The position numbers and the translations under genes are program-made. DNA of 63,764 bases, filler included. It is 7 parts of 7 records of this genome, joined end to end, with 100 filler letters (N's around TTAATTAATTAA, not from the genome) between each part and the next. Parts side by side here need not be neighbours in the genome. Positions count along the whole stretch, not along the records: positions 43,495 to 51,364 come from DRR723986_24817; 6 more parts are not named here. The stretch is one strand, 5' to 3'. Positions within the stretch are counted from its first letter, which is position 1. Each line of letters starts with the position of its first letter. Below, piece by piece: positions 42,242 through 50,394 of this stretch. The notes below the pieces were generated by a model. That model saw nothing but the letters and a program-made list of their open reading frames with translations. It did no database searches and was not told the origin of the DNA.

Positions 42242-43342
42242 ATGCAATCTAAGCTCCGTCGGCAAATTTGCTACGAAGCAGCTCGGGCGATGTATTTTCG
42301 CCACGAGTCTGAGTACTACCGTGCGAAGCAGAAAGCGGCTCGTCGTATCTGCAAGGGCTGGGTAAAACCGGCTGATCTTCCCAGCAACGCGGAAATTCGC
42401 GATGAAATCCAAGCGCTCGCGCGTCTGCATGAAGGACAGTCGCGAACGGACAACCTTCGCGAGATGCGACTCGTTGGGCTGCGTGTGATGAAGTTGCTGG
42501 AGCGGTTTCGCCCGCAATTGATCGGCAGCACACTCACGGGACACGTTCGGCAGGGATCGGATATTGACATCCATGTTTTCAGTGACAGCATCGAAGCCAT
42601 CTGCAGTGCCCTAGATGAGCAGCAGTTATTCTACGACGTCGAACGAAAACGTGTCCGCAAAGATGGCGTGGAACGCGTCTACACTCATATTCATTTGCGC
42701 GACACGTTTCCGGTTGAGCTGACGGTCTACGGATCGAAGTGGTTCACGCACGTGTTCAAGAGCTCAATCACTGGCAAGCCTATCGAAAGAGCGTCGATGG
42801 TCCAGGTTGAAGACTTGCTTGTGCGGGAGTACCCGGACATCAATGTTGAAACCGAACTGGATTCTATGGAAGAACTCCCCGATCGCTTTCAGTTTTACAC
42901 CGCATTGCTCCTGCCGCTGGAGAATGTGATGCAGCATCCGAAGTATCATCCTGAGGGCGATGTGCTTTACCACAGCCTTCAAGTCTTTGATCACGCGTGC
43001 GATCAGCTCCCCTACGACGAGGAATTTCTGACAGCGGCGCTTCTGCATGACATCGGTAAAGGGCTTGATCCGTCAGATCATGTTGCCGCCGGACTAGACG
43101 CGTTGGAGGGTTTTGTTACCGAGCGGACGGCGTGGTTGATTGAGCATCACATGACTGCCCATAGGATTCTGGACGGGTCGATTGGTTCGCGGGCCCACCG
43201 ACGATTGCGCGAAAACGAAAGCTACGATGAACTCGTGCTGCTTTGCCAGTGCGATCAAGCTGGTCGAGTCGCGGGAGTGCAAACAAGCACCTTGGAAGAA
43301 GCCATCGAGACGATTCGGCAGCTTAGCTACGAAGGATTCTAG
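42242..43342 (+). CDS. Pol-beta-type nucleotidyltransferase fused to an HD domain
   Basis: IGS...SDIDIH NTase motif; YHPEGDVLYH...LLHDIGK HD motif of the CCA-enzyme type. Confidence 0.85.
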   Translation: MQSKLRRQICYEAARAMYFRHESEYYRAKQKAARRICKGWVKPADLPSNAEIRDEIQALARLHEGQSRTDNLREMRLVGLRVMKLLERFRPQLIGSTLTGHVRQGSDIDIHVFSDSIEAICSALDEQQLFYDVERKRVRKDGVERVYTHIHLRDTFPVELTVYGSKWFTHVFKSSITGKPIERASMVQVEDLLVREYPDINVETELDSMEELPDRFQFYTALLLPLENVMQHPKYHPEGDVLYHSLQVFDHACDQLPYDEEFLTAALLHDIGKGLDPSDHVAAGLDALEGFVTERTAWLIEHHMTAHRILDGSIGSRAHRRLRENESYDELVLLCQCDQAGRVAGVQTSTLEEAIETIRQLSYEGF

Positions 43343-46091: not shown

Positions 46092-46706
46092 TTGATTGCC
46101 ATTTCCGCACGTGTCTCCACCTTGCTAACGGTCTTTATCCAGAGCCTTTTATCAACCCCTTTCCGACCAGTATACTCTGCAGGTGACCACCTAGATGAAT
46201 GGCTGTCGTCAGATGATAGCCCTGATGAGTGTATGTGCCTGTCAGATCTTGATGGCTTTATCCACAGTATCGTTTGCGGGCCTGTGATGATTTCAGTGGA
46301 AGAATGGCTACCTATCGTCTTGGGTGGTGCCCTATCTGACGTGCCTTCTTGGGTTTTGACGGATATAGCGACATTGCACATGGAAATGGTTGAGCGTCTG
46401 ATGTCAGACGATCCCCACATAGAACCGTTGTTCTGGCAGGCTCAGGAAGGCCACGTTATCGCCATGGACTGGTGTGAAGGCTTCATGGATGCTGTGAAGC
46501 TACGAGCAAAAGAATGGCTTCGCCTTACCGAAAGTGGTGAGTATGGTTCGTTGATGATGCCTATCCTTGTCCATATACTCGACTACAACGGCAATTCACC
46601 CTTCGAGATACCGCAAGAGGAGCTGGATCAGGTCCTAGATGATGCTGCGGACGCTATTCCTGATGCTGTAGTTGCTATCTATGAGTTCTGGCGACAAAGG
46701 GCATAG
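46092..46706 (+). CDS. UPF0149/YecA family protein; 5' end uncertain or degraded
   Basis: LSDLDGF..IVCGP..I...EWLP, WCEGFMDAV and V.AIYEFW motifs; family-like sequence starts near 46190. Confidence 0.75.
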   Translation: MIAISARVSTLLTVFIQSLLSTPFRPVYSAGDHLDEWLSSDDSPDECMCLSDLDGFIHSIVCGPVMISVEEWLPIVLGGALSDVPSWVLTDIATLHMEMVERLMSDDPHIEPLFWQAQEGHVIAMDWCEGFMDAVKLRAKEWLRLTESGEYGSLMMPILVHILDYNGNSPFEIPQEELDQVLDDAADAIPDAVVAIYEFWRQRA

Positions 46707-46750
46707 AGATCGGTACTTCTCTATTTTCCTTAGTAATAGAGCCGTTCTGT

Positions 46751-47578
46751 TCACATTGTACCCAATAAGGCTTCCTTGTGCTTGATTAACTGGCCCAATT
46801 TCTCGTCAAGATATTTGCCGTTTTTCCCAAAATGAATTTCCCGATGTACGTTGGGGGTTATTGCTGCGCAGTTAACGGGGTGATCCAGTCCTCCGTCAGA
46901 TAACTTCTTGATATGATGTACTTCTAGGTATGGTTGGCCATCAGGTTTGAAAAATGGGGCTTTCTCGCCAGTGAGTTCACAGACTCCCTCAGCACGGCGA
47001 AGCACGTATTCACGAATTTCAGAGCTACGTTGTCGCCTAATCTGTTTAGCCATCCTCCAATTTGTTGTCTCGGTTGGTACAACGGCTGCAAAGGCAGATT
47101 GCCGTAAGTCCTCAAATGTTTTGGTGGGGACAGGCTTGATGTTTTCATAGCCCTCATCAGGGCCTTCTGCAGTAGAAGGGACAAGATTAAAACGGATGGT
47201 CTTGCGTAGATCTCCATTTACATCAGGTCCACGGGCGAAATCTATCGAAGCGCATTCAAATTCCCCCAAGAACTCCACTGGTTGCCCTTTTCCAATTGCA
47301 CGGAACAAAAACAATTGTTTCCCATCTGCTATGTGGTCTCGGATTGCTTTGTTGCCACGGAGAAACTGCATATCGCCAACTTGGCCTTGGCCAGTGTACA
47401 GAAACACACCATCGTCTTGCTGCCAGCCGTCCTCATACCCGTATGCTTCACCGCTATCGCCAGTGAAGAGGAATATGTACGGATGAGAGCCACTCGGTGA
47501 AATACCGCTTTGTCGTGTACCGCCATATTTGTCGTGAATATCTTTTGATCGACTATATTTCTGGCCAACGACAAACAT
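46751..47578 (-). CDS. SRA-like domain plus HNH endonuclease (McrA/ScoMcrA-like, modification-dependent)
   Basis: IH..YGG.RQSGISPS..PYIFLF, YEDGW, YTGQGQVGDM...GNKAI; HNH CELT...YLEVHH...GGLDHPVNCAAITPNVHREIH; ATG 1 nt after the upstream stop. Confidence 0.85.
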   Translation of the reverse strand: MFVVGQKYSRSKDIHDKYGGTRQSGISPSGSHPYIFLFTGDSGEAYGYEDGWQQDDGVFLYTGQGQVGDMQFLRGNKAIRDHIADGKQLFLFRAIGKGQPVEFLGEFECASIDFARGPDVNGDLRKTIRFNLVPSTAEGPDEGYENIKPVPTKTFEDLRQSAFAAVVPTETTNWRMAKQIRRQRSSEIREYVLRRAEGVCELTGEKAPFFKPDGQPYLEVHHIKKLSDGGLDHPVNCAAITPNVHREIHFGKNGKYLDEKLGQLIKHKEALLGTM

Positions 47579-47579
47579 C

Positions 47580-48572
47580 TCAGTACCTCTGCTTAGTTGG
47601 GATAACCCCACGGACCCCGCCACGGGGGTTATCAACATCCCCATCACGCCTTGGGATCAGGTGGAAGTGAACATGGAAGATTGTTTGACCTGCTGACTGA
47701 CCTGCATTGATGCCGACATTGAAGCCTGTAACTGTGTGATCGTTATCTAGGATCGCCTGTCGCTGTTCATGTAGCATTGCCTCAATGGCATTACGTTCTG
47801 GCTGATATAGGTCGAAGTAATCAGCCACGTGACGCTTTGGGATGATTAGAGTATGATGCTCCGTGACAGGGAATGCGTCCTTGATAGCATAGCATAGCTC
47901 ATTCTCAGATATGATACGCCCAAGGCCTAGCTCACAGAAGGTACAACCCGCTTCACGGTTGTTGTAGCTGTCCAAGACACCCCTAAAGTCCGTGTCGTCA
48001 TTATCCCGCTTGTTGGTGTTACATGTCACACAGAGTGCTTGGAAGTTGCTAATATCGTCAGGCCCACCCTTAGACCTGGGGATAATGTGGTCGATGTGGA
48101 GTGCGGCCTGACCCTCATGCGCTCCGCATAATTCACAACGATGTTTTGCACGTTTAAGGACCTTGTAGCGAATGCTGCCAGACACATAGCCACTGTCGGC
48201 GCCTCTGTGGCCCCATATAGCCTCGCCACGTTTGCCTATGTATGCGTTGATAGCACTGTCGCACATGTCCTGCAGGGCAGCTCTCTGGGCCTCAGTATGG
48301 ATTACCTGCGTGAGGCGATAGCCGGTAATCTGACGGCCTTCCTTCATTGGCTCCACGACACCATTATTGGTCAAGACTTTGCCAACCATAGCTTTTGTGC
48401 GAAGCGAATAATATTCAACTTGCGACTGGTCGTAAGCCAAAAGACTTTTGGCAATCTCCTCTGTAGTGGCCTGGCCACCATTTTCCAACAGAACCTTCAG
48501 CATTACCGGCTGATAGATATGCGACATACGCATCTGATGCTTGATAAAATATTCTAGCTGGCAAGCGGTCAT
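47580..48572 (-). CDS. wHTH/SBD-like - HNH endonuclease - HIT hydrolase fusion
   Basis: MSHIYQPVMLKVLL N-domain; CELCG...IDHIIPRSKGG...NFQALCVTCN..K; CTFC...FPV...HTLIIPKRH...AGQTIFHVHFHLIPR. Confidence 0.9.
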   Translation of the reverse strand: MTACQLEYFIKHQMRMSHIYQPVMLKVLLENGGQATTEEIAKSLLAYDQSQVEYYSLRTKAMVGKVLTNNGVVEPMKEGRQITGYRLTQVIHTEAQRAALQDMCDSAINAYIGKRGEAIWGHRGADSGYVSGSIRYKVLKRAKHRCELCGAHEGQAALHIDHIIPRSKGGPDDISNFQALCVTCNTNKRDNDDTDFRGVLDSYNNREAGCTFCELGLGRIISENELCYAIKDAFPVTEHHTLIIPKRHVADYFDLYQPERNAIEAMLHEQRQAILDNDHTVTGFNVGINAGQSAGQTIFHVHFHLIPRRDGDVDNPRGGVRGVIPTKQRY

Positions 48573-49242
48573 GAATAGTTTACCCTACTGCTTTGTATTT
48601 CGATCCATCTTGAGCGATGCTGCCCTCAAATCGCAATCATATTTCCGGATATGGAGATACGCCTTGCCTGATCGAAGTGAGGGGAACAGTCAGTTACCAG
48701 AAAACTTTACACGACTACTTGGGCCTAAAGACGTATTTTCAGATACTCAATTCGGTGAAGTTTTGTCGCCAGTCGTGGAACCCGCAACAGACAAGGATTG
48801 GTCGATAATTCACGGTTATTTGGCCGATCTCGGGTTTTCAGGACTTCGACCATCCAGCACTCAGAAACTTGGTGTTTTGCTGTCCAGCTCCCTGATGCAG
48901 TCGATGCGCCTTGAGGGGCGCAGAGAGCGTCGTGGAGAAGCGATGCTGATAGGTTGACACAGGAGCGAAAGCTATTGGCGGCGAAGGTCTAAGGGGGGCT
49001 ACAGGCTCTCTGAGTATCTGCGAGACGCCATGCGTAAACTCGGCTGGATTACCCATACTGCGGGGGCATCGTGAACCTCTATGGGGGGAACGGTAACTGC
49101 AATGGCTGTATGATTGAATGCTTTGTGCAGTTGGTGAGGGCTTGGGGGGGGCTACGCATTGTGGCTGGATGATTTGGCTCGACCCTGCTTTCCAACGCTA
49201 TTTCCACAACCCAACTTTCAATTTGAACACCTGCGAAGAAAA

Positions 49243-50394
49243 CTAATGGAGGGGAGGACGATTTAAGTATTCTTCGATCTCTTGGTCAGTAATGAAGCGC
49301 CCATTGTTCTCAGTGAACGGCTCATAGTCTTTAGTATTCCAAAGGCCTGCCCCGGCATGTTTCTTAAGCAAAGCCTTCTCAATACTCAGAGCTTCTGTCT
49401 TTGTAAGACCTTCATAGAGAACACTCACATCCATCTCACCCCTGACGAAGCGGTGCTCATTGATTTTGAAGTTGTGAGAAACGCCGGAGTTCACATGTTT
49501 CCAGCGGTCACTCTTACCCTCACCAATATAGCGCACCTGCCCATCCGCATCTTTGACCTGATAAACGATGTGATCCTTTAAAAGATCGTTTTGCACCACC
49601 AGCCTCAAGGGGTTTCGCCGCTTCTGGGGTGCGATGTGAGCAACTACACCAGATTGATATGTTCTGGTATGTGCCCTCACATCGTGTTTCTGTCGGTCTG
49701 GAAGGTTAGCGATCAGTTTGTCGGTTGTTCCGAACGTCGCCGACACTAGACTGACGTAATCCATATGGCCACTGTCAAAGCCTGGCTTGGGGAGAAACAG
49801 CCTTGCACGAACATGTTTTGTGAGTTTCTCAATACCAATGAGATCAAGGCCTGCTTCATTAGACATTGAGTCAATCTCCCCGAATGCAAAAGAAGGATAT
49901 GGTACAATCACAAAGCCGAATGCCCGTGTCTCTCTGTCAAGAAACACATAAGGGGAAATATCTGTCGCCCACTCAAAATCCGTAGCTTCCAGAGTGTGCC
50001 ACTCATTCACCAGTGACTTATCCAGATCGAACAAAAACAAGCCGGTAAAGGCCTCACTCACATCGCCACGACCTAGGCAATACGTCCCCCATGCACTTTC
50101 ATCTTGTTCTGTTAGACGCCTGTTTGACCTCAGGTTGTTTAATGCTCGAACCACGGCACCAAGCATAAAGGCAGCCCCTCCATCGGAAATGGCGTTACCT
50201 TCGCCACCAAACTTTGAAGTCATAACCATCTGAACCAAGCTGCTGAGCGAAGGCTTGTGGGGATATTCCCGGAACAACAGTTCGGCGAGGTCGCCCAACT
50301 TGTGGGGCGGCACATTGGTCACTGCACGTTCTAGTTCTCTTTTGAACTTTTGCTGTTTTCGCCTTTGAAGTTCTTGATGTGCCGTGAGAGCCAT
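49243..50394 (-). CDS. Protein with a C-terminal GIY-YIG nuclease domain
   Basis: HIVYQ...VRYIGEG..DRW.H...EALSIE..L...LWN; internal HDVRAHTR motif. Confidence 0.7.
   Translation of the reverse strand: MALTAHQELQRRKQQKFKRELERAVTNVPPHKLGDLAELLFREYPHKPSLSSLVQMVMTSKFGGEGNAISDGGAAFMLGAVVRALNNLRSNRRLTEQDESAWGTYCLGRGDVSEAFTGLFLFDLDKSLVNEWHTLEATDFEWATDISPYVFLDRETRAFGFVIVPYPSFAFGEIDSMSNEAGLDLIGIEKLTKHVRARLFLPKPGFDSGHMDYVSLVSATFGTTDKLIANLPDRQKHDVRAHTRTYQSGVVAHIAPQKRRNPLRLVVQNDLLKDHIVYQVKDADGQVRYIGEGKSDRWKHVNSGVSHNFKINEHRFVRGEMDVSVLYEGLTKTEALSIEKALLKKHAGAGLWNTKDYEPFTENNGRFITDQEIEEYLNRPPLH

Follow-up and report, generated by a model that had tools for sequence, protein, structure and literature searches.

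Two co-oriented HNH nuclease genes lying almost end to end raise the question of whether they form one dedicated restriction system or two enzymes that share an operon. The window, that is, the whole stretch of 63,764 nucleotides analysed, consists of contigs joined by N-linkers, and both genes lie on a single 7,870-bp contig (43495-51364; DRR723986_24817). Gene A (47580..48572, minus strand; 330 aa, TGA at 47582-47580) encodes a winged-helix (SBD-like)-HNH-HIT fusion; gene B (46751..47578, minus strand; 275 aa, ATG starting at 47578) encodes an SRA-HNH type IV restriction nuclease. At the junction (47576..47591, minus strand) a GAGG within the last codons of A, 7 nt ahead of the B ATG, is followed by the TGA, one base (47579) and the ATG of B. 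This one-base layout recurs in relatives and is consistent with translational coupling of B to A. The junction was spanned by contigs in 4/4 public runs examined (4 studies, 1-13 differences; one run is possibly the source sample), so the adjacency is not an assembly artefact, confirming the observation, made in an earlier note on this DNA, of two co-oriented genes one base apart. One RNA run has a contig across the junction, which proves neither transcription nor a single transcript. The earlier note also reported no methyltransferase: none was found among the ORFs scanned, but this absence is uninformative because the window is a concatenation and the contig is short (7,870 bp).

On the contig neither a tRNA nor an informative repeat turned up, and sites resembling promoters or terminators are not in excess. 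A UPF0149/YecA-family gene (46092-46706, plus strand), with a partial PADLOC match to PDC-S12, is convergent with B, and a relative of it adjoins A in 6 of the 80 genome loci and in L187, mostly divergently upstream. In run X4, a single contig joins 46096 to 48605 and omits UPF0149, B and A (the short flank has 31 letters), which hints weakly at insertion of the 2.5-kb block 46097-48604. On the same strand as A, 670 nt upstream of it, lies a 383-aa ORF (49243-50394, minus strand) whose C-terminal part resembles GIY-YIG only weakly (E 0.0011, below the cut-off) and which has no relative among the 160 loci tested. A nucleotidyltransferase-HD fusion (42242-43342, plus strand) belongs to the neighbouring, different contig and is unrelated to A and B. 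At 84%, A has its closest genome relatives in Planktotalea and Ascidiaceihabitans, and from these the host would be a marine Rhodobacterales bacterium; most of the runs that contain the DNA come from lagoons, estuaries, seawater or aquaculture.

Judged by its alignments, gene B is an ordinary SRA-HNH enzyme, a new member of a known family, from a clade without the zinc cysteines. PF26348, which we take to be the ScoMcrA-type SRA family, is present in 119 of the 120 B homologues listed. In agreement with the domains first assigned to it, B aligns over its HNH with that of EcoKMcrA (6ghc, E 4.5e-21) and over both SRA and HNH with ScoMcrA (5zmm, E 8.7e-9), and PADLOC reports an mREase_IV match over the HNH part. 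Aligned to the ScoMcrA SRA, residues 1-135 (47174..47578, minus strand) form an SRA domain of that type; residues 184-261 (46796..47029, minus strand), aligned to EcoKMcrA, form a McrA-type HNH. Seven residues (Y48, D50, Y61, H221, H222, H245 and H249) are invariant in 34/34 aligned rows. In EcoKMcrA the four histidines correspond to H228/H229/H252/H256, none of which is dispensable for activity according to the available text of PMC6182155, so that all four catalytic histidines are common to both proteins; by analogy with the TagI pocket residues Tyr55/Asp58/Tyr67 (PMC6212794, available text), Y48, D50 and Y61 are candidate SRA pocket residues. The type IV character proposed for B is supported. 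Three of the four structural-zinc cysteines are replaced, C200 alone being left, and a complete two-CxxC zinc site occurs in 4 of the 120 B homologues listed; the site is typical of McrA-type HNH domains rather than defining, and its loss marks B as a variant. SRA-HNH enzymes (TagI, ScoA3IV/Sco5333, MsiJI) are described, in the accessible parts of PMC6212794 and PMC6765204, as cutting 5mC/5hmC DNA as single genes, seldom near methyltransferases. B shares with them the SRA and HNH domains, the pocket aromatics and the carboxylate, and differs in combining a ScoMcrA-type SRA with an EcoKMcrA-type HNH, in its clade without the CxxC-CxxC zinc site and in its place behind a HIT 3' end.

The two catalytic domains proposed for gene A were recovered by Pfam, both above cut-off: HNH at residues 146-190 (E 1.7e-14) and HIT at 220-310 (E 3.6e-19). 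The HNH nuclease (48003..48137, minus strand) contains two CxxC motifs, D161-H162, N176 and N185, invariant in 34/34 rows, and is nearer to the IscB/Cas9d type. The HIT domain (residues 209-313; 47634..47948, minus strand), also matched to HIT proteins by Foldseek, has an intact and invariant triad, H300/H302/H304, and its closest structures are bacterial HIT proteins, mycobacterial Ap4A phosphorylase and Fhit. The motifs of both domains are all intact in 71 of the 75 genome loci long enough to test. The family is large (5912 of 6571 candidates at E<=1e-20, a count that may include partial-domain matches). PADLOC gave partial HIT and HNH matches only, with ThsC (the Thoeris type II HIT protein) matching the HIT part (E 1.8e-11), and neither PADLOC nor NCBIfam has a model that covers A over its full length; against NF045808, the SBD-HNH family, A scores 16.4 bits versus a cut-off of 180, over the HNH part only. 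AF2 modelled the full-length protein poorly (mean pLDDT 57), leaving the HNH unfolded, and a Foldseek search with this model gave HIT rows only. Neither an HNH-HIT fusion nor the A/B pair came up in searches of the literature or in the available text of PMC7461809, PMC11037411, PMC10853773, PMC12839542, PMC13092281 and PMC8565338, whose supplements, notably those of PMC10853773, could list the architecture. The absence of a catalogued match in these searches agrees with the earlier note, which did not recognise the pair as a named system.

Residues 1-120 of A (48213..48572, minus strand) are predicted by AF2, from 87 sequences, to fold as a winged helix with extra N- and C-terminal helices (pLDDT 85), and this front domain has no match in Pfam, NCBIfam or PADLOC. 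In a VIA-align search of 48,161 chains, five SBD entries rank 4, 6, 9, 10 and 12 (Z 7.2-8.2, rmsd 3.7-4.3, 103-109 residues aligned); they tie with ORC/Cdc6 winged helices (Z 8.3-8.5, 95-99 residues aligned) and give the longest structural alignments among the matches listed. No DpnI-type winged helix appears among the 50 structural matches listed. The SBD is itself a winged helix, according to the available text of PMC10853773. The first sulfur-pocket motif of SBDs (H-R/K-P, or Y-Q-P in SprMcrA) is present in A and near-invariant: Y20-Q21-P22 (48507..48515, minus strand) is the counterpart of the SprMcrA YQP (Y31, Q32), by motif match rather than residue-level superposition, and is conserved in 87/87, 86/87 and 86/87 family rows, respectively. 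The solved SprMcrA SBD chain shows YQP at the matching place, the start of a helix, and in the accessible part of PMC7470945 Y31 and Q32 line the sulfur cavity together with Y78, P79 and A82.

The second pocket motif was not found. Its putative counterpart to the SBD Y-P-x-x-A-L, placed in register by eye, is M62-V63-G-K-V66-L67 (48372..48389, minus strand). On this by-eye register position 63 is V in 48/87 and P in 33/87 family rows, with V in the window copy, and the pocket-floor position is Val in 55/69 and Pro in 4/69 genome loci; the floor proline (P165 in ScoMcrA, P79 in SprMcrA) is thus apparently a valine in the window A. This proline is critical and among the most conserved SBD pocket residues, and a Tyr-to-Met change in the ScoMcrA pocket strengthens binding (both from the available text of PMC6224610). 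Profile comparison by hhalign of the front domain with five SBD-HNH proteins gave a probability of 0.1-0.4% (3 runs), the SBD profile being thin and including no SprMcrA-type member. A sequence search with the domain found no SBD; Foldseek had no SBD among the matches listed and no match of any kind reaching E<=0.001; an Atlas search with residues 1-130 returned just unnamed clusters and one HNH/HIT cluster; and 150 front-domain representatives, mostly fragments or frameshifted, showed by eye no recurrent other fusion. The gene dndC occurs in 1/74 genomes carrying A and in 16/401 background genomes (p 0.49), a difference that is not significant as avoidance of dndC genomes. On the strength of the fold search and the YQP motif, "SBD-like", as the domain had been called, is a fair label for the modelled front domain, with SBD membership not established.

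The nearest described enzymes to A are the SBD-HNH nucleases (SprMcrA, EcoWI; NF045808), in which, according to the available text of PMC7470945 and PMC7461809, an N-terminal SBD-like winged helix is likewise followed by HNH and no methyltransferase is needed; SprMcrA has the YQP motif in common with A. They differ from A in the second pocket motif (Y-P versus M-V/P-G in A), in their HNH type and in the C-terminal HIT domain, of which those texts make no mention. The adenine-methylation-dependent wH-HNH enzymes are also single-gene winged helix-HNH fusions, but of 224-283 aa and with no HIT described in the accessible part of PMC11037411, versus 330 aa with a HIT in A. ThsC is a HIT-family protein in a defence context, as in A, but a stand-alone partner of ThsAB (PMC8565338, available text), whereas the HIT of A is fused to a nuclease. 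We regard A as an uncharacterised variant of the reader-HNH type IV enzymes that has a fused HIT and plausibly descends from a sulfur reader. Human HINT1 converts dGMPS to dGMP and H2S (PMC8775712, available text), and by analogy this chemistry would offer a coherent role for a HIT next to a phosphorothioate reader. In genome G466, three SBD-HNH (NF045808) paralogues lie in tandem (L192 576-3248, minus strand).

Whether A and B belong together is answered largely by their distribution. The pair had been proposed as a split, two-nuclease module, with rare co-occurrence named beforehand as what would speak against it, and rare co-occurrence is largely what was found. B directly follows A in 2/80 A genome loci (L022, L056), 72 of the 80 having at least 1.2 kb downstream; in L078 B is near A but unlinked. 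In 401 genomes (family of G002), A is present in 13 and an SRA-bearing B in 4, with both in the seed only, and among 102 genomes (genus of G001) two have A and three have B (one a partial copy), again with both in the seed only. The closest A relatives (82-84%) lack B. From the side of B, 73 of 80 metagenome loci have at least 150 nt upstream, and a HIT 3' end abuts B in 4/4 loci at >=70% identity and in 0/69 below 70%; in two distant metagenome loci, A or a HIT is one gene away. Of the B viral loci, 1/80 has A nearby, in convergent orientation. Nor do the two genes look like ScoMcrA (SBD-SRA-HNH; PDB 5zmm) cut in two: the same three domain types are spread across A and B, but in two chains instead of one, with two HNH domains, an added HIT and genes that separate freely. 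Reader and HNH are complete in A and in B alike, and the pair is therefore not a split ScoMcrA.

Eight B copies are coupled to a HIT end. A wH-HNH-HIT gene lies upstream in four of them (window, L022, L056, L082), only a HIT relic in three (L083, L132, L290), and in L081 a stand-alone HIT behind a different HNH. The A start codon reads ACG in L082 and the A gene of L056 is split over two contigs. The one-base gap is kept in the window, L022 and L082, with 3 bases in L056; L001 (84%) has the same junction as far as the ATG, followed by a stop. Since each gene also occurs without the other (relics, L001, rare adjacency), the genes are separable. In a FastTree analysis of 66 B rows (L132 and L290 absent), the six coupled rows fall inside one 9-row clade (support 100), which argues for a single capture of B. 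In a quick tree of 74 A rows, from which short-match or stop-containing rows were excluded, the four B-paired copies need 4 changes and have unpaired sisters. Sliding identity of L022 climbs to 84% over the last 100 nt of A, which is only suggestive of recombination at the HIT end. The simplest reading of these sequences would be that B was captured once behind the HIT 3' end, with repeated loss or exchange of either partner afterwards. A predicted A+B complex returned no answer (score 0.00) and counts neither way. We consider the pair to be a real but lineage-restricted operon, probably of separable nucleases.

In L081 (3588-5828), a 340-aa HNH protein with an unclassified front domain is followed by the stand-alone HIT, 79% identical to the HIT of A, and then by SRA-HNH with a one-base junction. 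Isolated HIT 3' fragments of 45-83 codons are present in related genomes (L296, L297, L298, L300), showing that gene A decays often.

The place behind A is not reserved for SRA-HNH. In 68 genome loci where the end of A plus 350 nt was readable, we scored ORFs of at least 100 aa starting <=8 nt from the stop. A coupled ORF is present in 15/68 loci, about five independent cases, and 15/15 are of nuclease type: ten 152-aa GIY-YIG-like proteins, two SRA-HNH, and one each of SNase (apparently secreted), DUF429 (presumably with a nuclease role) and exonuclease-endonuclease-phosphatase. The remaining 53/68 loci have no coupled gene; A mostly stands alone. The 152-aa protein (Atlas 0.92-0.97) has no Pfam or PDB sequence match. 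It is highly conserved directly behind A in L006, L010, L012, L015, L016, L018, L025, L026, L028 and L052, with broken copies in L007 and L008, and occurs also in 4 viral loci. It is coupled to A more often than SRA-HNH is, and A with the GIY-YIG-like protein is a better candidate for a recurring two-gene unit than A with SRA-HNH.

A defence-island setting is supported, modestly, by the neighbourhood of A: PADLOC matches were obtained for 20/135 A-adjacent genes versus 8/122 genes more than 5.5 kb away (Fisher p 0.044), the loci not being independent, some matches being generic and four being partial UPF0149/PDC-S12 ones. The neighbours include McrC, Mrr, DruE, Upx, Schlafen-group helicases and serine recombinases, one serine recombinase family being present in 21/80 loci. 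McrC lies directly upstream of A in three loci (L041, L046, L047), where A stands right behind it in a McrBC-like operon, followed by DUF429 (PDC-S44) in 2/3. Neither ThsA nor ThsB is found among the 135 A-adjacent genes, and no signalling enzyme recurs among the neighbours. A occurs in 14 viral loci; plasmids gave no A match at 1e-40, and phages matched the HIT part only (2 records of one Streptomyces phage). A dense cluster in L099 (1137-6121) contains an HNH, a MazG-like protein, an EVE-like protein, SRA-HNH, a stand-alone HIT and a second HNH, uniting several modification readers with two nucleotide hydrolases.

The reading that we favour, and judge to be probably correct, is that A and B are two separable single-gene modification-dependent (type IV-like) nucleases stacked in one short operon that lies within a variable island, the host being a marine Rhodobacterales. 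As a member of its family, B would bind flipped 5mC/5hmC through the SRA and cut nearby with its HNH. A would bind a mark of non-self DNA through an SBD-derived winged helix and cut with its own HNH; the mark would most likely be a backbone modification, e.g. phosphorothioate or a related one, and the HIT domain would most likely hydrolyse the unusual nucleotide released when such DNA is degraded. B would have been captured once, into a coupled slot where the HIT 3' end ahead of it would supply its ribosome-binding site and which other lineages fill with other nucleases; A and B would act additively, neither needing the other, in what we infer to be a defence function. Counted against this reading are the negative SBD results by profile, by sequence and among the Foldseek matches listed, the ORC/Cdc6 tie, the apparently missing pocket proline, the non-significant dndC comparison, the modest PADLOC enrichment over loci that are not independent, and the persistence of the pair over 64-81% B identity, which could reflect selection on it. 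A more specific version, which we consider rather unlikely, is that A is a phosphorothioate-restriction enzyme in which an SBD-derived reader binds, the HNH cuts and the HIT desulfurates thiophosphate nucleotides, and that it heads an exchangeable second-nuclease slot (SRA-HNH, GIY-YIG-like) broadening the marks restricted.

Alternatively, A might read no DNA modification and be a nucleotide-gated defence nuclease with a generic DNA-binding winged helix. Its HIT would then sense or turn over some nucleotide linked to infection, whether Ap4A-like, adenylylated or cyclic, and so switch the HNH, possibly in abortive infection, with B as a passenger. The apparent loss of the pocket proline and the undetected profile homology to SBDs point this way, as do the mycobacterial Ap4A phosphorylase and Fhit among the best HIT structure matches and the match of the HIT part to ThsC (E 1.8e-11), which is proposed to handle a second messenger (PMC8565338, available text). 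However, YQP is near-invariant and stands at a helix start like the SprMcrA pocket motif, among the structural matches listed the SBDs align over the most residues, and no signalling enzyme recurs among the neighbours, which leaves gating of this kind doubtful. Still less probable is that A and B depend on each other as a two-nuclease module, whether by reading two marks or by acting as one complex, functionally a ScoMcrA split in two. ScoMcrA does unite SBD, SRA and HNH in a single chain (PMC7461809, available text), and the gap of one base (3 in L056) is kept in the window, L022 and L082 across B copies of 64-78% identity. Against this, A and B rarely co-occur, either partner is lost while the frame of the other stays intact, the quick tree requires 4 changes for the four A copies paired with B, whose sisters are unpaired, and each protein has an HNH of its own.

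HIT domains are also known from DNA repair, aprataxin being a deadenylase of blocked DNA ends, and A might accordingly be a DNA-end processing or repair enzyme of integrative elements, its HIT deadenylating blocked ends, rather than a defence protein. A is often found beside serine recombinases and in prophage-like contigs, with several nucleases and helicases among its neighbours; but its patchy presence (13/401 genomes), its frequent truncated relics and its defence-gene neighbours (McrBC, Mrr, DruE, Upx) make this the least credible of the readings considered, and a very improbable one.

The main interest lies in gene A, whose family is widespread across phyla and uncharacterised by the searches made. 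Should the front domain prove to be a sulfur reader that has diverged, the SBDs would be extended to a large new clade, and HIT domains, recurrent beside restriction-type HNH, would gain a job in handling the nucleotides of modified DNA. The clade of B indicates that a McrA-type HNH can apparently be retained without its structural zinc. The A/B pairing itself matters less: it shows defence nucleases stacking and swapping behind one ribosome-binding site.
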